Of a DNA stretch of 64,000 bases, positions 429-9,796 are shown piece after piece. Under the pieces are notes generated by a model that was given only the letters and a program-made list of their open reading frames with translations, searched no databases and was not told the DNA's origin. The position numbers were made by a program, and so were the translations under genes. Source of the stretch: Nibricoccus sp. (GTDB taxonomy: Bacteria > Verrucomicrobiota > Verrucomicrobiia > Opitutales > Opitutaceae); the NCBI GenBank assembly GCA_047602425.1, contig JASGHG010000001.1, positions 3,392,001 to 3,456,000 on the forward strand. The letters are read 5' to 3'. Each line of letters begins with the position of its first letter. The first letter of the stretch is position 1.

Positions 429-3206
429 TTATTCGGCGCTGATCTTGAACGGAATCGTCACGCGGGAACGTGCGGGCTTGCCGCGAACGGCGCCGGGTTT
501 GAAGCGCCACTTGGTCGCAGCAGCCAGGCAGGCTTTGCCGAAGGCAGGGCTCGAAGCCTGTTCGACTTTGAGGTCGGTCGGGATGCCGTCCTTGCCAACC
601 ACGAGCGAGATGAGCGCTGAGCCGCCTTCGGCGCGCTGACTCGTCGAGAGATCGGGATCAGCTTGTGCGATCGGAGTCGGACGCTCGTCGAGTTCGCTCA
701 ACTTCATCACGCGATCCGAATCCTGCATGAGGCCGTTGAGCGTAAGGGTCTTTCCGCTCTCAACTTTACCAGTTAGCGTAACTGGGTCGCAGCCGCGGTA
801 GGTGAGGGTAAAGCTCACGTTGCCGGGCGGGATGCCGTTGATCGTATGAGGCGTGGTGCCGATTTTGACTTGGTTGTCGCGGAGAATTTCAGCGCCTTGC
901 GGGTTGCTGTTGATGACGACCGTGCCACCGGAGAACTCGCCATTCACGCGGCTCGAACCGTTGCGTTCGACCGTGACGGTTGTGGTGTAGGCTGGCCAAT
1001 TTGGACGGCTGATTGTCACCTGATAGGATCCGACGGGCAGACCGGTGAGGGACGCAGGTGTCTGACCTGTACGCACGTCACTCGGATTGAAGAACAGCGT
1101 GCCGGCAGGTTTAACCTCGTAAGCGAGGTTGCTCGGATCGCTGCTCAGTTCGATGGCACCCACCTGACGTTTCAGGACAACGGTGCCGAGATCGGTCGTT
1201 TCCTTGTCTTTGATCTCGAAGGTACGGGTTTCGCTATCGTAACCCGGCATCGAAATGGTCGCGGTGTAGGGCCCGAGGCGCATGTCCTTGATGGTAAGGG
1301 GCGCGGTCTTGGTGCCGTAAATATCCACATTAACGGAGGCGCCAGCGGGGTCGGTGGCAACCACGAGAATACCGCGGCCGTAAATGAACTTGTTGCGCTC
1401 CTCGTCCTGACGTTTGCGCAATTCCTCAAGTTCACGCGCACGTTTGATCTCGGCTTCTTTTTCAGCCAGTTCGCGTGCTTTGCGTTCTTCGTCAGCCTTG
1501 CGTTGTTGTTCGGCGAGCTCGCGTTCCTTGGCCTTGATTTTGGCCTCGGTTTCAACGCGGATGCGCTCACGCTCCTTGGCTTCGGCCTCGGCCTTGCTCT
1601 TGCCGCTGATCATGAAGAACGCAGCGACGCCGATGACGGCGGCCACGCCGATCACGATCGGAATCAGCATATTGCTCTTCTTGGGCGGGAAAGGGGCCGC
1701 GGTGGCGGGCTTGGAGCCGCCGCTGACGACCGGAGCCGGGGAGGGTTTGGCGGCAGGAGCTGGTTTGGCCGGCTCGGGCTTCGGAGAGGGCTTCGCTGCG
1801 GGGGCCGGCGCAGCGGGCTTGGCTGCGGCGGCGGGTTTGGCGGGCTCAGCTGGTTTGGCTTGGGCGGGCGGGGTGCCAGCCGGTTTGGCCGGCGGCGTGG
1901 CGGGCTTGGCCGGCTCCGCCGGTTTGGCGGGCGGAGTAATGACAACCGCGGGTTTCGCCGGCGCAGGGGGCGTGGCGGGCTTGGCGGGGGGCGTTGCGGC
2001 CTTGGGCGGGTCTTGAATGATGGCCGGGATCACCGCGGGCTTGGCGGGTTCGGCTGGTTTTGCGGGGGCGGCGGGCTTGGCCGGCTCCGGAAGGATGGCC
2101 GGGATCACCGCGGGAGGCGGCGTCGCGGGTTTGGCCGGGGTCGGCTCGATCAAGATCGCCGGGATGATCGGAGCTGCGGCGACCGGAGTATTGGTAAGAA
2201 TGGGATTCCACGGGCGGACACCGCCCGGTTGGGCGAATTCGTGGGTGGCAACAGCATTGAGCACACCGAGCCACGAGGGAGAAATGTCAGCCGCGCTGAG
2301 GCCCGCGCCGAACGCGAGGCCGCGACCGCTGGCCCATGCGGAGATATCAGGCGCGAATGGCGCGAGGCCGGTGCTTTTCGCGAGAGCTTGATTGATCCAG
2401 GCCTGGCGGGCGAGAAGGCCGGCGCAAACAAACTGGGCGGGATTGCCAAGGCCGGGGAGCGCGCCTTTGATGGCGGTGGCAAGTGGTTCGACGATGGCGG
2501 TGGAGGTTTCGCTGAAATCGTACGAATCGTTAAACATCAGACGGCCGGCGGAGCCCTTGAACTTCAGGCCGAGGGCGGTCTGGGTGGAACCAGCGAGTGT
2601 ATCCAAGCCGACCGGTACGGTGGCCAGTGCGGTCACGCCCTGGCTCGATATCGCGATCAGGGTCGAATTGTTTTCCGAAACCTCGACGAGGAGGACGGTG
2701 TTCGTTTTCGCCGCGGTGGAGATGGCGCCTGCCAGGGTGAGCGGTGCGGATTGGCAGCGAACGAGTTCAAAGGTCCAACCGCGGAGCTTGCCGAGGGATT
2801 CTTCCGTGTTGGTGGAAGGCGAGGCGTCGAGCGCCCAGCGTGCACCGCCTTGGGGAACGAGTCCAGTGCCGGCGCCGAACCAAGCCCAATTGGCGGGCAT
2901 GTTTTCCGCGCCCAGTGTGGTCCGGAGAAAGTTTTCGACCGCGTCGGGAGTGGCGACGCTCTTGCCTTGGGCGGCATCGGCCAGAAGGGTGCTGCGAGCT
3001 TTAAGGCGGAGCAGGGCGGTGGCTTTGGACCCGCCGCCGGCAGGGCGCAGCTCGTTGATCACGGCATCGGTTGCCGCCGAATCGCCAAGCCATACTTCCT
3101 TGATGGCCTCGATGGTGCGGGGCTTGGGGCCAAGAGTGGCTCGGGCAATTACCAAATTATATTCACCCAGTTCGACGAAGAATCCGATAGAGTCTGAAGC
3201 GCTCAT
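429..3206 (-). CDS. TonB-family fusion protein: degenerate PilM/FtsA (actin-like) N-domain, Pro/Ala-rich linker, TM helix, coiled coil, PEGA domains, TonB C-terminal domain
   Basis: C-terminus has a TonB_C pattern (ISLVVGKDG...AAATKWRFKPG...VTIPF). PEGA-type starts: VATDPAGASV, LSSDPSN, INSNPQGAEI. TM segment LIPIVIGVAAVIGVAAFFMI and PAKPA repeats. N-terminal FFVELGEY and LLVEVSENNSTL motifs resemble PilM. Confidence 0.8.
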   Translation of the reverse strand: MSASDSIGFFVELGEYNLVIARATLGPKPRTIEAIKEVWLGDSAATDAVINELRPAGGGSKATALLRLKARSTLLADAAQGKSVATPDAVENFLRTTLGAENMPANWAWFGAGTGLVPQGGARWALDASPSTNTEESLGKLRGWTFELVRCQSAPLTLAGAISTAAKTNTVLLVEVSENNSTLIAISSQGVTALATVPVGLDTLAGSTQTALGLKFKGSAGRLMFNDSYDFSETSTAIVEPLATAIKGALPGLGNPAQFVCAGLLARQAWINQALAKSTGLAPFAPDISAWASGRGLAFGAGLSAADISPSWLGVLNAVATHEFAQPGGVRPWNPILTNTPVAAAPIIPAILIEPTPAKPATPPPAVIPAILPEPAKPAAPAKPAEPAKPAVIPAIIQDPPKAATPPAKPATPPAPAKPAVVITPPAKPAEPAKPATPPAKPAGTPPAQAKPAEPAKPAAAAKPAAPAPAAKPSPKPEPAKPAPAAKPSPAPVVSGGSKPATAAPFPPKKSNMLIPIVIGVAAVIGVAAFFMISGKSKAEAEAKERERIRVETEAKIKAKERELAEQQRKADEERKARELAEKEAEIKRARELEELRKRQDEERNKFIYGRGILVVATDPAGASVNVDIYGTKTAPLTIKDMRLGPYTATISMPGYDSETRTFEIKDKETTDLGTVVLKRQVGAIELSSDPSNLAYEVKPAGTLFFNPSDVRTGQTPASLTGLPVGSYQVTISRPNWPAYTTTVTVERNGSSRVNGEFSGGTVVINSNPQGAEILRDNQVKIGTTPHTINGIPPGNVSFTLTYRGCDPVTLTGKVESGKTLTLNGLMQDSDRVMKLSELDERPTPIAQADPDLSTSQRAEGGSALISLVVGKDGIPTDLKVEQASSPAFGKACLAAATKWRFKPGAVRGKPARSRVTIPFKISAE

Positions 3207-3415
3207 TATGTTGAAGATACGTAGAAAGCTTTTTAGAAAAGAGGCCCGCCTGAGGCGTAATCTCTAAATAACTGCTGTAAAGGTAAAAGTCTTTGTGTCG
3301 TTGTTATTTTTTGAGTATAGGCTTGAAAGTCTGGTGAGGTAAAATCACCAGATTTACGAGAGATTGACGTTGTCTAGATTTCCCCTTCCGACAGAATGTA
3401 TTAACTGAAAGACCA

Positions 3416-6400
3416 GTGAGCGCCAAAATCCTGCTAGTTCAACACAGCGACATGCTTCGCCAAGCCAGATCTTTGATCTTTGGCGGGGCCTTTTTCCATG
3501 CATTGTCATTGCGAGAGGCATCACAGGTGAACGATTACTTGGCGCGTGAGACGGTGGACGTGATTTTGGCGGATTGTCGGGGGGCGGATGCAAATGGTTT
3601 GGATTTTGTTGAGGCATTACGCAAGGCTCAACCGCGTGCAAAAGTGATTCTTGTGGCCGATGGTTTGGATTTGCCCACGGTGGTTCGTGGCATCCGTCTG
3701 GGAGTTAAGGATGTGTTCCAACCACCGCTCGACATCGAGGCGATGACCAAGCGCATCACGGACTTTATCGCCAAAGGCGACGGCGCGGGCGAAGCGTTGC
3801 GCAACGCCGACTGGAGTTCACTCGAAGATTTCTTCCAAGGTGGCAGCGGCACTCCTGCCGCCGAGGTTGCAGCCAAGACTCCGCCGCCCAAAAAAGATCG
3901 CGCGAAACCGTCGTCTATTGAGAGCGACGCGGTGCGGGAAGAACTGGCCAAGGAACGCGCCACTCTTTCGACGGAACGCGCCCGCATTGCCGAGGAAGCC
4001 AAAAAGGTCGAGCAACGTGTTGCCGCGCTTGAAGCCGAGCGCGCCACCGTGGCGGCCAACATGGCCAAGCTCGCCGACATTCAAAAAGCCGAGGCAAAAC
4101 TCAAGCAGCGTGAAGACGCACTGGTTTCTGCTCAAGAACGTCTCCTGATGGATCAGGAGAAACTTGATGCCGAACAAGCGATGGTGAAACAAAATGCGGC
4201 GAAGAAAAAAGCCGACGACAGCGCCGCCGAAGCCGCCGAACGCAAGCGTTTGGAAGAGGAAAAAGAACGCCTTGCCGAGGAAAGCGCCGCTCTTGAGGCC
4301 GCCCGCAAGGAAATCGCCGGAGCCGAGAAAAAACTCGAAGAACTTCGCATCCTCCAAAAACAGCAGGACGCCGCGGCCAAGGCGCTCAAACAGGAGCGCG
4401 ACGCGCTCGCTGCCGAACAAGAGCAACTGGCCCAAGAACAGGCGAATCTGGCCGCAGCCCTCAAGGAGCTCGACCAAAAGCGCAAGGCTGGAGAAACCCG
4501 CCAAAAGGAAATTGAGAAGGAGCAGCAGCGTCTCTCTGACATGGAGGCCTCGCTCATGGCCGATCAGGCCGCGCAGAAGAAATCCGAGCAACGCATCGCC
4601 GCCGAACGCGCCGAACTTCAAACCCAACTAGATGCTGTAGCTAAACGCGAAGCCGGAATCCGCGAAAAAGAAAGCCAGGCCAAAGCCTCGGTCGACAAGG
4701 CCAAGGCCGATGCCGATGCTCTCGTGGCCAAGGTTCGCGCCGAAGTTGCCGCCGAACGCGCGGCGCTCGCCGATTCTGAAACCGCTGTGGTGGCCGAGCG
4801 GGCCAAGCTCAAGAAAGCCGAGCAGAAGCTCGCCGTCGAAAGCACCGAGGTTGAACAACAAGCCGCCCTGCTCGCCGACCGCGAAGCGGCCTTGGCTGCT
4901 CAAGAACAGCAGATCAAGGCCAAGATGAGCAAGGCCGAGTCCGAGGCCGCCGCCCTCGTGGCCAAAGCCAAGGCCGATGCCAACAAAGAGCAGGCCCGCC
5001 TCGCCGATGCCGAAGCGGCGATCGAAACCGAAAAGGTCGCTCTCAAACAGGCGCAGCAAAAACTTTCGACCGACCAAGATTCCTTTAAGAAAAACGCCGC
5101 CACCTTTGCCGAGCGCGAAACAGCTCTCGCCACTCGTGAAAAGACGCTTCGCGACGAACAGGCCAAGGCGAAGGTCGAATTTGAAGCGGCACAGGCAGAA
5201 GCCGCCGCCATTCTTAAGAAAGCCAAGGCCGACGCCGAACAGGAGCAGCGCAAAATCGCCGAAGGCGAAGCCGCCCTCGTCGCCGCCAAGGCCGCGCTCA
5301 AGAAATCCGAACAGCAGGTTGTCACCCAGCGCACTGAACTCGAGGAAATGGAAGCCTCGCTTTCGGAACGTGAAGTCCTGATCAAACAGCAAGAGACAAA
5401 AGCCAAGACCGCCGTCGACAAGGCACAGGCCGAGGCCGACGCACTGCTCAAGAAAGCCAAGGCCGACGCCGAAAAGGAACAGCTCAAGCTGGCTGAACTC
5501 GAGGAATCCATTCTCACCGAGAAAAACGCGCTCAAGCAAAACGAGCAGCGCCTCGCTGCGGAACAAGCCGCGCTCAAGAAAAAGGCCGACGAATTTGCCG
5601 CCCGCGAAACCGCGCTCCGCGAACAAGAGGCCAAGGCTAAAAGTGCGCTCGAAAAAGCGAACACCGAGGCATCTTCGATCATCGCCAAGGCGAAAGCCGA
5701 GGCCGACAAGGAGCAGCAGGCGCTCGCCGAGATGGAAGCGTCGCTCTCCGCCGAGAAGGAAACGCTCAAGAAAGCCGAACAGCATTACGCCAAGGAGCGC
5801 ATCGAAATTCAGACGCAGATGGATCAGCTCGGCGAACGCGAAGCCCTATTGATTGCCCGCGAGTCGAAACTCAAGCAGCAGGAGACGCAACTCGCCACGG
5901 CGCTCGACAAAGCCAAGGCCGAGGCCGACACCATTATCAAGAAAGCGAAAGCCGAAGCTGAAAAAGAACAGGCCAAGCTTGCAGAACTGGAAACGTCGAT
6001 CGCGACCGAGCGCGCCACGCTTAAGAAGAACGAACAGAAACTTCTCACGGAGCGCGCCGAGCTTGAAGAACATTTGGCCACGCTCGAAGTTGAGAAGAAG
6101 AAGCTCGCGACCGATCAGGCTGCGATGAAGAGGCTGGCCGACGAAGCTCGCGCCAAAGTCGAAGCCGAACTCAAAGCCGGCAAGGACGCTATTGCCAAGG
6201 AAAAGTCCGAGTTCGCCAAACAGCGTGTCATCGTCGAGGAAGAACTCGAAACAGCCCGCTTGTCGGTTTCGCAGACCGAGAAAAAACTCAAAGCCGATCA
6301 GGAAAAAATCGCCGCCACCGAGGCAAAGATCAAAGCCATGGAGGCCAAGGTCAAAGCCGAGCAGGAGGAAGTCGAACGCATTGGCGCGGAAGTCGAAGCC

Positions 6401-6691
6401 TCACAAGCCAAACTCAAGGCCGATCTCGCCAAGGTCGAAGCTGCCAACAAGAACTTTGCCAAGAAGGAAGCCGAACTCGCCGACATCGAGTCGAAGCTCC
6501 AACTCGAAGAAGGCCGCTTGAAAAAGGAAGCCGCGAAATTCGCCCAGGAACGCAGCCTGTGGGAAGCCGAAGTGGGTTCCTTCCAAGACGAGAAAAAGAA
6601 GTTCGTCGATGCCACGGCGCAGTTCGAAAAACGCCGCAAGCAGGTTCTCGAACAGGCCAAGGCCCTCTTGGAACGCGACGCCGCGGGTTGA
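3416..6691 (+). CDS. Pseudo-receiver (REC) domain protein with a very long repetitive coiled coil
   Basis: GTG start. N-terminal REC fold (KILLV...DVILAD...GLDFVEALRK...GVKDVFQPP) followed by about 900 aa of E/K/A-rich heptad sequence. Confidence 0.85.
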   Translation: MSAKILLVQHSDMLRQARSLIFGGAFFHALSLREASQVNDYLARETVDVILADCRGADANGLDFVEALRKAQPRAKVILVADGLDLPTVVRGIRLGVKDVFQPPLDIEAMTKRITDFIAKGDGAGEALRNADWSSLEDFFQGGSGTPAAEVAAKTPPPKKDRAKPSSIESDAVREELAKERATLSTERARIAEEAKKVEQRVAALEAERATVAANMAKLADIQKAEAKLKQREDALVSAQERLLMDQEKLDAEQAMVKQNAAKKKADDSAAEAAERKRLEEEKERLAEESAALEAARKEIAGAEKKLEELRILQKQQDAAAKALKQERDALAAEQEQLAQEQANLAAALKELDQKRKAGETRQKEIEKEQQRLSDMEASLMADQAAQKKSEQRIAAERAELQTQLDAVAKREAGIREKESQAKASVDKAKADADALVAKVRAEVAAERAALADSETAVVAERAKLKKAEQKLAVESTEVEQQAALLADREAALAAQEQQIKAKMSKAESEAAALVAKAKADANKEQARLADAEAAIETEKVALKQAQQKLSTDQDSFKKNAATFAERETALATREKTLRDEQAKAKVEFEAAQAEAAAILKKAKADAEQEQRKIAEGEAALVAAKAALKKSEQQVVTQRTELEEMEASLSEREVLIKQQETKAKTAVDKAQAEADALLKKAKADAEKEQLKLAELEESILTEKNALKQNEQRLAAEQAALKKKADEFAARETALREQEAKAKSALEKANTEASSIIAKAKAEADKEQQALAEMEASLSAEKETLKKAEQHYAKERIEIQTQMDQLGEREALLIARESKLKQQETQLATALDKAKAEADTIIKKAKAEAEKEQAKLAELETSIATERATLKKNEQKLLTERAELEEHLATLEVEKKKLATDQAAMKRLADEARAKVEAELKAGKDAIAKEKSEFAKQRVIVEEELETARLSVSQTEKKLKADQEKIAATEAKIKAMEAKVKAEQEEVERIGAEVEASQAKLKADLAKVEAANKNFAKKEAELADIESKLQLEEGRLKKEAAKFAQERSLWEAEVGSFQDEKKKFVDATAQFEKRRKQVLEQAKALLERDAAG

Positions 6692-6861
6692 GTTCTTCTT
6701 GGCGCACACAAGTGGTTTAGGCTGGCGCCGCTGCGCCGGCTCTAAAAGCGCATGTGGTCCAATGCGGTTCGGTTCGGTCGGTTGGGCGCAGGAAAAACAC
6801 ACGTGTCTGATTTTGCTCTCGCGCAAAATCCTCCGTGGGTGTTGAACGGAGATCCCCACAC

Positions 6862-8718
6862 ATGAGCTCCATCAACCGATTCCTCCTCCAAAACAACCTC
6901 CGCATCTCCACCAATCCCTGTGTTAGTCCCGACTTCTGCCTCGATTGGCCTGCGCTCAGCGCGAAGTTGGTCAGCGGCGCGACGGTGAAGGTCTGGCCGA
7001 AGAGCCAGTTTACCACCGCGGCCGGCAAGTGGACGTTGCTCGAAGATCCTTTCAACGGCGATTGTGCCTGGAAACTGGTTCCTAAAACCGGCACCGGCCT
7101 CAAGGTTCTCGCGGAAGGCGTGAAAATCAAAGGAGGCGCGGTTTTCCCTGCGACTTTCTCGAACCTGCTTGTATTGAAAAACCTGGTACAAAAAGCCGAC
7201 CCGGAATCGACGATCTTCGCGACGGCCGGCCAGAAGCTCGGCCAGAGCACGCTCGGCATCGGCGCACGCATGACCACGCTGCACTGGCCCGCGGTCGAAT
7301 GGGCAATGAGCACGCTCGGCATTGGTGTTACCGCCAACCAGAATTCCATTCCGCGCGAACTCGTTTACGACGTGAACTCGATGCTCGACGGCAAACTCGA
7401 CACGGTGCCATTTCCGTTTATCGGCACCAATGTTCCGGAAGGCCATCAGGGGCAGAGCGTCGAGGGCATGAGCCACGGTTGCGTGTTGTCGAAACTGAAA
7501 ACAGGCTTCCACAAGCGCGGCATTGCTTGGAGCTTCAACGCCGACCACCAGCCGATCGGCGGCAAATTCGACGTGCGTGAAGACCAACTTGTCACCGGCT
7601 GTGTGCTCGCGAGCTATATCACTTTCGATCTTTCGCCTGAACTTGCGCAGACCAAAGTGCCGGACGATGCCGCCGGTTGGGTCAAGGCGAACGTGCCCAC
7701 CGACCTTGTCGAAAAGGTTAAGGCGCGCGTCGCTTCTGTCGGCCTTACGGTCAATGAAACCGATCTGGCGAAGCTGCTCGCGTACGTCTGGCCCGCGGTG
7801 AAAAAGATGAAGGTGCGCGACGAAAAATATGCCGCGGCTCGCGCGAAACTTTTCACCACGAAAGTTGGCCGCACGTACCTGCGTGAACTTTCAATCGACG
7901 AACTGCCCGGCCTCACCACGCCGGAAACGACTGCCACCATGCTTTCGCTCTGCGAAGCGCTGGACATGAAGATCAACTTTGTCGCTCCAGCATTTGGCTT
8001 CCAGAAAAACATGCCTTATCCGGACAATGTCGCGCTGAAGGCGCTCATCGAGAAGCAGTGGGACGTCTGCAAAAAGTTCGGTTCCAGCATCGGTTTTCAC
8101 TCGGGCTCCGGCAAATCGGCGGAGAACTATCAAGTCATGGGTCAGGTCACCGGCAGCAACCTGGAGATCAAGACCAGCGGCCGTTATACCTATGAACTGG
8201 GTCGGGCTCTGTTTGCCTCGACCAGCGCTGCGGACCAGATGCTCTGGAGCGATTGGTACAAATTTACCGTTGAACTCGCCCTCAAGGGCGTTTTCAGCGC
8301 CGATGCCACTGAGCAGAAGATGGCACGGATCTTCGTGGTCGACGCCCTCAGCAAATCCGGCAAGCCCACCGAGGTATTCGCCAGCGAAGCGACCGCTCGC
8401 GCGGCGATCGAGGCATTGAAGCCGAGTCCGGAGCATATGTTCTGGTTCGAGTACAACTTTCTCTTCATCCTCGCCGGCGGCGGCAAAGCAGAGAAGAGCG
8501 CGCTGGGCGATCATTCGCCAGCTGGTTACCAGCAGCGCGCGCGGTTCTACTCGATCAGCGATGAAGGCCGTCTGAATTTCCTGAAGAATATCGCGAGCTA
8601 CATCGTTTTCCTGGCGGAGAACACCGCGCTGGCTTCCAAGAAAGTCTGCGCCGACGCCAAGAAAAAACTCGCCAGCTACAAAACGCTCGAAGCGATGCTG
8701 GACGGCGTGGCCAAGTAA
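6862..8718 (+). CDS. uxaE: Divergent tagaturonate/fructuronate epimerase (UxaE)-like protein
   Basis: Ordered motifs TLGIGAR, NQNSIPRE, FNADH, ITFDLS, ELSIDE, FHSGSGK and EIKTSG match the UxaE pattern. ATG at 6862 is in frame with the ORF. Confidence 0.65.
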   Translation: MSSINRFLLQNNLRISTNPCVSPDFCLDWPALSAKLVSGATVKVWPKSQFTTAAGKWTLLEDPFNGDCAWKLVPKTGTGLKVLAEGVKIKGGAVFPATFSNLLVLKNLVQKADPESTIFATAGQKLGQSTLGIGARMTTLHWPAVEWAMSTLGIGVTANQNSIPRELVYDVNSMLDGKLDTVPFPFIGTNVPEGHQGQSVEGMSHGCVLSKLKTGFHKRGIAWSFNADHQPIGGKFDVREDQLVTGCVLASYITFDLSPELAQTKVPDDAAGWVKANVPTDLVEKVKARVASVGLTVNETDLAKLLAYVWPAVKKMKVRDEKYAAARAKLFTTKVGRTYLRELSIDELPGLTTPETTATMLSLCEALDMKINFVAPAFGFQKNMPYPDNVALKALIEKQWDVCKKFGSSIGFHSGSGKSAENYQVMGQVTGSNLEIKTSGRYTYELGRALFASTSAADQMLWSDWYKFTVELALKGVFSADATEQKMARIFVVDALSKSGKPTEVFASEATARAAIEALKPSPEHMFWFEYNFLFILAGGGKAEKSALGDHSPAGYQQRARFYSISDEGRLNFLKNIASYIVFLAENTALASKKVCADAKKKLASYKTLEAMLDGVAK

Positions 8719-8772: not shown

Positions 8773-9058
8773 ATGCGCGCACTATGGAGTGCCAGCTTGA
8801 GTTCAAGCGGAACGAATTGGGTGCTTGATATTGAGACGGACGACGGGTGCCAACCTGTTGAAGCCGGATTTTTTGAGGCTGACCTCACCGCCGTACTTAG
8901 GCGGTTGTGGCTTTTAAGTTTTTGAATTCACTGAGTATCGCTGGAAATGTCGGTTTTTATAACGTTTGCCTGCGCTTACTTAGGCCATGCTGACGGGATG
9001 CGATGTCGGGCGGGGTTATATTCATAGAGGCATAGATAAATTTAACCCAACTTCCCCA

Positions 9059-9796
9059 ATGAAAACGCTCCATGGCTTTGCCCTGTTGTTGGCGGGACTC
9101 TTGGTGAGCCCGGCCCTTTCGCCAGCGGTTTTTGCCGCCGAGGCTTCGGATAAGAGACTAGCAGTGATACAGACCACCGAACCATTCGTGCGCACCAGGA
9201 TTGCCCAAGTCCTGCCCGCCCACGCGCAAGTTCGTTTGTTGATCAACGTGGACGCGACCGGAAAGCTCGTCGACTGGTTGTTGCTCGATTATTCCGAATC
9301 GATTTTTGCCGACGCCGTTGTGGACGCGGTGAAGCAGTGGAGATTCGATCCGGCGACTTACAAGGGCACGCCCATCGGCACGCGGACAACGCTGGTCTTC
9401 AATTTTGAAACAAATGGGCAGGTCGTATCGATGACTTGCCTGGATATGATCGATGCCTACATGAAAAACTTTACAAAGGACCAGATGGTGAAATGCGTGG
9501 TTCCGGGCAAGGAACTGGACTCCGCACCAAAGCCATTGGTTATGGTTTCGCCGCTGGCGATTCCGGCCGAACTAGCGGCCGGCGCCTCGGGTGTCACGGT
9601 CGATTTTTATATCGACGAAACCGGACGTCCCCGGATGCCCGCGGTGGATGTGAAGGAAAACGATCCGATGGCCCTGGCGTCGCTCGCCGCGATCGAGCAC
9701 TGGCGGTTCACGCCGCCGACGAGCAAAGGCCGCCCGGTCACTGTTAGAGCAACTCAGTGGTTCGATTTCAGCAAGACGACGGTTGCGGCAAAATAG
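9059..9796 (+). CDS. Exported protein with two TonB C-terminal domains
   Basis: Signal peptide MKTLHGFALLLAGLLVSPA. Two TonB_C motifs: DAVKQWRFDPA and AAIEHWRFTPP...VRATQWFDF. Confidence 0.8.
   Translation: MKTLHGFALLLAGLLVSPALSPAVFAAEASDKRLAVIQTTEPFVRTRIAQVLPAHAQVRLLINVDATGKLVDWLLLDYSESIFADAVVDAVKQWRFDPATYKGTPIGTRTTLVFNFETNGQVVSMTCLDMIDAYMKNFTKDQMVKCVVPGKELDSAPKPLVMVSPLAIPAELAAGASGVTVDFYIDETGRPRMPAVDVKENDPMALASLAAIEHWRFTPPTSKGRPVTVRATQWFDFSKTTVAAK

Follow-up and report, generated by a model that had tools for sequence, protein, structure and literature searches.

In a 64 000-nt stretch of a Nibricoccus sp. genome (hereafter the window), we have characterized a 925-aa protein (positions 429–3206, minus strand) in which a PilM-like domain is followed by a linker, a single transmembrane (TM) helix, a charged helix, three PEGA domains and a TonB_C domain. 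Whatever its periplasmic end, this fusion travels with a gene for a coiled-coil protein that usually begins with a pseudo-receiver, and its N-terminal domain is a duplicate of the PilM encoded in the pilus operons of the Opitutales. These findings suggest that the two proteins form a hitherto undescribed anchor between the interior of the cell and its envelope; we found no description of either the fusion or the pair in the open literature (closed journals and supplements lay outside the scope of the search).

Architecture of the fusion protein

The order of elements given in a preliminary description of this DNA (N-terminal domain, linker, TM helix, charged helix, PEGA and TonB_C) was confirmed by Pfam, by hydropathy and by homologs. 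PEGA and TonB_C were present in 22 of the 23 homologs retrieved with residues 1–340, the remaining one being a fragment, and the fusion of PilM-like domain, PEGA and TonB_C is therefore real. The PilM-fold domain (aa 1–324; 2235–3206, minus strand, as for all features of this protein) is followed by a short tail (aa 328–340; 2187–2225) with an invariant tryptophan, W333, and then by a long, flexible cytoplasmic linker rich in Pro, Ala and Lys (aa 341–512; 1671–2186), 33% of which is proline. Across 62 fusions the length of this linker ranges from 63 to 379 aa, with a median of 165. Hydropathy identifies a single TM helix without His (aa 515–533; 1608–1664), beyond which lie a periplasmic helix with a charged sequence (aa 536–608; 1383–1601) and, by Pfam, three PEGA domains (about aa 609–830; 717–1382) and a TonB_C-like domain without the Tyr-Pro motif (aa 836–925; 432–701). 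The N-terminus is probably cytoplasmic, as previously proposed, this being the simplest topology for a protein with a single TM helix and no N-terminal hydrophobic stretch (62 of 62 fusions).

The N-terminal domain is a duplicate of operon PilM

Structure comparison bore out the actin-like fold suspected for the N-terminal domain and placed it specifically closest to PilM. Furthermore, the fusion profile aligned with one operon PilM over 327 columns at 20% identity (hhalign probability 99.8, E 4e-30). The 925-aa protein itself gave no match to PF11104 or TIGR01175, and one of 28 rows matched, at E 0.15; the operon PilM copies of the Opitutales likewise fall below the cut-offs. A stand-alone paralog of about 350 aa occurs in most relatives, a single query matching 164 of 201 family genomes. 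All 18 stand-alone copies that were fetched stand at the head of pilM-N-O-P, in one case with a gap of 1.5 kb behind pilM, and 16 of the retrieved regions include a PilQ/GspD secretin; the operon secretin carries an STN/N0 domain and gave no AMIN match. A quick tree built from 63 rows separated these 18 copies from 35 Opitutaceae fusions, each set forming a clade with an SH-aLRT of 99, but did not settle whether all fusions are monophyletic.

The phosphate-loop residues had been described as degenerate. This decay is present in the fusion but is not special to it, as the stand-alone PilM of the Opitutales is also without the motifs. In place of the canonical DxG, DxG and GG(G) nucleotide motifs, the aligned fusion sequences have E-x-[TNG], [DE]-x-G and a single G, and the decay of the ATP motifs is partial, with E12 kept in 61, D/E175 in 55, G177 in 53 and G263 in 60 of 68 rows. 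Lost from fusions and stand-alone copies, the canonical motifs are kept in a separate, Amuc_1101-like lineage. The most conserved patch (aa 209–231; 2514–2582; Q-x2-LGLKF-x3-A-x2-L-x-FN-x2-YDF), which from the topology we take to be subdomain 2B, is common to the fusion and operon PilM except at F216 and N226 (D and S, respectively, in operon PilM), differences that may point to a partner other than that of PilM.

The tail with W333 is absent from stand-alone PilM and is probably a built-in PilN-like peptide. The fusion aligns up to residue 366 of the PilM:PilN1-12 structure 5eou and ends at 353–354 in PilM-only entries, the superposition of the tail on PilN1-12 being judged by alignment range only. 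Sequence evidence for PilN ancestry is weak: W333 took first rank under a PSSM in just 24 of 67, and the tail scored 12.5 by hhalign against first-operon PilN and 8.3 against second-operon PilN, other Trp-centred windows reaching 9.2. Natural PilM-PilN fusions do occur in this family (as one ORF in L168 and L173), and GspL/PulL has been described as a PilM-PilN fusion (PMC10191384).

Many Opitutaceae have a second, more divergent pilMNOP operon after minor-pilin-like genes (L154–L168, L171 and L173), with no adjacent secretin in view. In the window's own genome the operon pilM (G000:C1:1634845-1635883, minus strand, outside the window) is split into two frames near 1635391 (codon ~165); the copy of the nearest relative is intact, and the frameshift is either a real mutation or an assembly error.

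The partner gene

The strongest clue, omitted from the elements first listed, is the neighbouring gene (3416–6691, plus strand). It lies head-to-head with the fusion across an AT-rich intergenic region of 209 bp (3207–3415), which is similar among close relatives and holds one sigma70-like match, at chance level. Its 1091-aa product consists of a pseudo-receiver, a short Pro/Lys-rich stretch and a heptad coiled coil of about 900 aa, with a hydrophobic period of 3.54 and a 78-aa internal repeat; only five frames of the 5.16-Mb genome pass the coiled-coil-richness filter. The receiver (3416–3835, plus strand) matches Pfam Response_reg at E 6e-10, and its model (pLDDT 86.9, with a strand where helix 1 is expected) gave receivers as top Foldseek matches at a TM-score of about 0.5. 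Asp53 is kept, the acidic pair is replaced by K/R/Q and there is no Lys before the last Pro; among 30 partner receivers, Asp53 is kept in 26, K/R/Q stands at position 9 in 29, T/S is found in 12 and the Lys is absent. Pseudo-receivers have been defined as receiver folds without at least one of DD, D, T and K (PMC12632262) and, judged by these residues, the domain is a pseudo-receiver by that definition. The C-terminal coiled-coil motif (6623–6688, plus strand; F-E-x-[RK]-x2-Q-x2-E-x-[ML]-K-x2-L) is missing in the most distant partners. The partners vary in length between 223 and more than 2000 aa.

The neighbourhood survey was confined to the 80 best among 91 confirmed GTDB loci, four of them without upstream DNA. 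In 73 of the 76 assessable loci a partner lies directly upstream. It bears a receiver in 62, of which 50 are head-to-head (one, L069, counted by hand) and 12 co-directional, and in 11 it is a receiver-less coiled coil of 223–263 aa with the same C-terminal motif; the other three (L059, L062 and L063) have no partner. The 68 partner-bearing rows form 16 clusters at 50% identity and seven at 40%. In a second set picked for distance, leaving out one contig-end locus and the Amuc_1101-like locus, 13 of 18 assessable loci have the partner, including three more families (f7, f14 and f17), and five do not. The pair also persists without a periplasmic domain. Two genomes (G023 and G079; loci L169 and L170) encode a shortened PilM-like domain, aligning only to profile columns ~120–290, then a TM helix and almost nothing thereafter, and these TM-only forms are head-to-head with coiled coils of 1880 and over 2097 aa, the N-termini of which match the receiver profile (probability 91 and 87). 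In one further genome (G020) the partner is kept, without its C-terminal motif, and no fusion was found. The caveat on all these counts is that adjacent genes are co-inherited and that kin are not independent.

Of 251 genomes drawn from the whole phylum, a 68-row profile matched 36, all within the window's order, and the named relatives of the fusion are Opitutaceae and other Opitutia. Among 67 mostly near-complete family genomes, 21 carry the fusion (counted from frame lengths, one being split over two contigs), all 21 with operon pilM and 17 with an adjacent receiver match, and the fusion is found in none of the eight family genomes without any pilM match (p 0.04, ignoring kinship). Operon pilM is also present in all seven fusion genomes from outside the Opitutaceae. 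As only 21 of the 59 genomes with a match hold the fusion, it is accessory. The cultured Opitutaceae bacterium EW11 carries the pair; the accessible part of the report on this strain describes pilus genes and swarming and says nothing on the pair (PMC7251102). In flanks of 9 kb (many of the 80 loci being shorter than this), no locus held homologs of the exbB, exbD, motA, receptor, pilB, pilT, pilC, pilN or pilQ genes of the window's genome.

Several other observations concern these loci. In family f17 (L135 and L136), PilM-like fusions occur as a tandem pair, each with a beta-rich periplasmic end of its own, next to a single receiver/coiled-coil gene. A helical protein of ~315 aa and of no Pfam family is fused to a PilM-like domain without a TM helix in P0054 and P0056 and is encoded beside the pair at L151:14814-15806 and L181:11930-13006; it is a possible third component. 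A UxaE (tagaturonate epimerase)-like gene (window 6835–8718, plus strand; 627 aa) is a neighbour in 14 of 81 loci, mostly from close relatives. Further atypical receiver/coiled-coil paralogs (G000:C1:2939080-2940495, plus strand, and L175–L179) stand without a PilM-like neighbour; they are of about 470–480 aa, a widespread form, or of about 1400–1550 aa, three of five beside clpB-like genes.

The periplasmic end

An S-x3-H motif in the TM helix and a Tyr-Pro motif before the first TonB_C strand are features of energy-transducing TonB, which has a short cytoplasmic tail, whereas 514 aa precede the TM helix of the fusion. A TM His occurs in one of 62 PEGA-TonB_C fusions (for one row the helix fell outside the range searched), whereas reading by eye shows S-x3-H in those TonB/TolA genes of the window's genome that are linked to exbB. 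Similarly, Tyr-Pro is found in the TonB_C of one of 60 parsed fusions; of the genome's other TonB_C domains, 17 of 28 have it. The loss of both signatures, together with the lack of exbBD or receptor genes nearby, sustains the earlier view that this is not a nutrient-uptake TonB. The outer-membrane partner proposed with it is not supported, and TonB_C is replaceable: the ends of 69 long relatives (three further long rows were left out) comprise 39 with PEGA and TonB_C, six with PEGA only, seven that are ConA/LamG-like (three LamG over the cut-off and four weak ConA-like) and 17 without a Pfam match, and in the two TM-only genomes the protein stops just beyond the TM helix.

The genome has 29 TonB_C matches overall. 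A small exported protein in the window (8987–9796, plus strand), one of several such in the genome, consists of two tandem TonB_C domains. The TonB_C domain nearest to that of the 925-aa protein lies in a cluster of genes for ECF-sigma-like/TM/TonB_C proteins (G000:C1:3862102-3868787), each gene being followed by a small TM/coiled-coil gene. In a class of ~700 aa (L141, L142, L145 and L146) a nameless beta-rich C-terminal periplasmic domain of ~200 aa, with Atlas matches to unnamed clusters only, takes the place of PEGA-TonB_C. Small TM and charged-helix proteins (G000:C1:1112366-1113469, minus strand, and 79426-80115, plus strand) resemble the TM/helix segment of the 925-aa protein in make-up; two such proteins are encoded at the end of an exbB-exbD-exbD-tonB-TPR operon.

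A proposed envelope tether and its alternatives

In our judgement it is likely that the two proteins work together as a tether and not as a TonB. Our tentative proposal, to which we give a little under an even chance, is that this envelope tether, encoded by two genes, evolved from the alignment complex of type IV pili and serves pili. The gene would have arisen when pilM became joined to the beginning of pilN; the PilN groove would then be filled in cis, and the domain would presumably be unable to join the normal PilMNOP ring. A stalk of charged helix and three PEGA domains would have replaced the periplasmic part of PilN. At its tip a module that binds passively (TonB_C in this protein, lectin-like domains in others) would hold on to some component of the outer envelope, for which the STN/N0 domain of the secretin PilQ is a possibility; a contact between TonB3 and PilQ N0 has been proposed (PMC5285504). 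On the cytoplasmic side, the PilM-like domain may be a non-enzymatic docking surface binding the long coiled-coil protein, with the pseudo-receiver as a protein-docking input, and the patch shared with PilM could bind a PilM-type partner, either PilM itself or a PilB, PilT or PilC component. The genome encodes four PilB/GspE-like and four PilT-like ATPases. Like FimV/TonB3 and FrzS, the pair might then control the position or the gating of pilus machines, as a landmark or a brake. Against a purpose in pili stand the lack of pil genes near the 80 loci, the accessory distribution of the fusion, the partner kept without a fusion in G020, the receiver/coiled-coil paralogs without a PilM-like neighbour, the loci without a partner (3/76 and 5/18) and the intact fusion in an assembly with a frameshifted operon pilM.

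The first and last of these points favour instead a pilus-independent cytoskeletal anchor, in which the PilM copy, fully co-opted, would only hold a long coiled-coil filament at the inner membrane and envelope; the purpose might be cell shape or polarity, the marking of division sites or the placement of flagella. The persistence of the pair where the periplasmic part and half of the PilM fold are gone (L169 and L170) and the wide range of partner length agree with such an anchor, as does the co-option of PilMNO by flagellar motors (PMC10823254), the window's genome being flagellated. The conserved patch is still common to operon PilM, however, and the fusion is found only in genomes with operon pilM (21/21, and 7/7 outside the Opitutaceae), and we regard this alternative as unlikely.

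Rather doubtful, too, is a modular, envelope-spanning Opitutales anchor whose components are a duplicated junction of pilM and pilN and a giant coiled coil with a pseudo-receiver, converging on the GltJ/AglZ layout of myxobacterial focal adhesions; in it an actin-fold hub would couple a cytoplasmic filament of up to 2000 or more residues to swappable grips (TonB_C, lectin-like or none) and organize polarity or surface movement. A force transducer proper, in which the protein would couple a proton motor of the ExbBD/TolQR type, together with a platform in the cytoplasm, to an outer-membrane adhesion complex in an unrecognized surface motility, is improbable. In Myxococcus xanthus, GltJ and GltG are described as having a cytoplasmic domain, a TM helix and TonB_C, and GltJ as binding AglZ, a receiver/Pro-rich/coiled-coil protein (PMC11135422, PMC11761067); the fusion and its partner match this layout, with an actin fold at the place where the Agl-Glt platform uses MreB. 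Besides flagella, MreB, FtsA and MotA, the window's genome has four ExbB/TolQ-like genes (some of these identities were read by eye). This likeness is, however, one of layout only, compared by the papers' descriptions; motor genes are near none of the 80 loci, the TM helix has no His, the periplasmic end is replaceable or absent, and no Roadblock/MglB match was found in the genome.

We think it more improbable again that the pair signals across the membrane, with a TonB_C or lectin-like domain sensing an envelope ligand and the PilM-like domain relaying to the partner receiver. The occurrence of the closest TonB_C on an ECF-sigma-like/TM protein makes TonB_C a periplasmic module of one-pass regulators in this genome, and Asp53 is kept in most receivers; yet a Pro-rich linker of 63–379 aa separates the PilM-like domain from the TM helix, the receiver, which 11 loci have lost, has neither the acidic pair nor the Lys, and the neighbourhood clusters show no recurring kinase or DNA-binding output gene. 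Finally, an ordinary TonB paralog energizing TonB-dependent receptors, its cytoplasmic domain accessory, is very improbable and largely refuted by the TM His and Tyr-Pro counts, by a gene context with neither exbBD nor receptor genes in 80 loci and by a TonB_C dispensed with in 30 of 69 long relatives, even though the domain exceeds the Pfam and TIGR01352 cut-offs, the database name is TonB family protein and the genome has 20 TonB-dependent receptors.

Relation to known systems

The fusion belongs to none of PilM, TonB, GspL and Glt; its parts are known and its layout has precedents. PilM of the type IVa pilus alignment complex (PDB 2ych, 5eou) is soluble and stands at the head of pilMNOP(Q), as do the stand-alone paralogs (18/18), whereas the fusion is membrane-tethered and outside pil operons, with decayed ATP motifs, a PilN groove probably filled by its own tail and a coiled-coil partner gene. 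Like GspL/PulL of type II secretion, it joins a PilM-like domain to a TM anchor; unlike GspL, it carries PEGA/TonB_C and not a PilN-like periplasmic domain, and secretin and ATPase genes are absent nearby (80 loci). The analogy with GltJ/GltG and AglZ extends to the order of cytoplasmic domain, TM helix, stalk and TonB_C, but the fusion has an actin fold instead of ZnR/GYF or FHA, a PEGA stalk, and no agl/glt-like motor cluster at its loci. By a further analogy, pilus machines are positioned by FimV/HubP, TonB3-PocAB and FrzS, which are either one-pass proteins or coiled coils with a pseudo-receiver: FimV and PocAB-TonB3 are reported to position pili (PMC5285504) and FrzS to be a polar beacon (PMC9811614). 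In contrast to FimV/HubP and TonB3-PocAB, the fusion gives no LysM or TPR match and its loci have no linked ExbBD-like genes, and FrzS is described as without the receiver Asp that the partner keeps. In the Amuc_1101 family (NF045709), which has a member in this family (L144), a verrucomicrobial PilM is likewise joined to a membrane-anchored C-terminal part, but this is a separate lineage with canonical DxG/GGG, and the 925-aa protein gives no NF045709 match.

In summary, neither the 'TonB family' nor the 'response regulator' annotation at this pair holds in its usual sense, and a whole PilM lineage below the Pfam cut-offs heads pilMNOPQ operons across the Opitutales. If the proposed tether is correct, it would be a second co-option of a pilus alignment protein, after that of PilMNO in the flagellar cage of Helicobacter (PMC10823254), here as one envelope-spanning polypeptide with an exchangeable periplasmic grip. 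If the modular anchor were the true reading, there would be polarity or surface-movement machinery in a phylum where none is described. For the Verrucomicrobiota, the cell biology of which has been little studied, the two genes are a concrete candidate for a role in polarity or in the positioning of pili.
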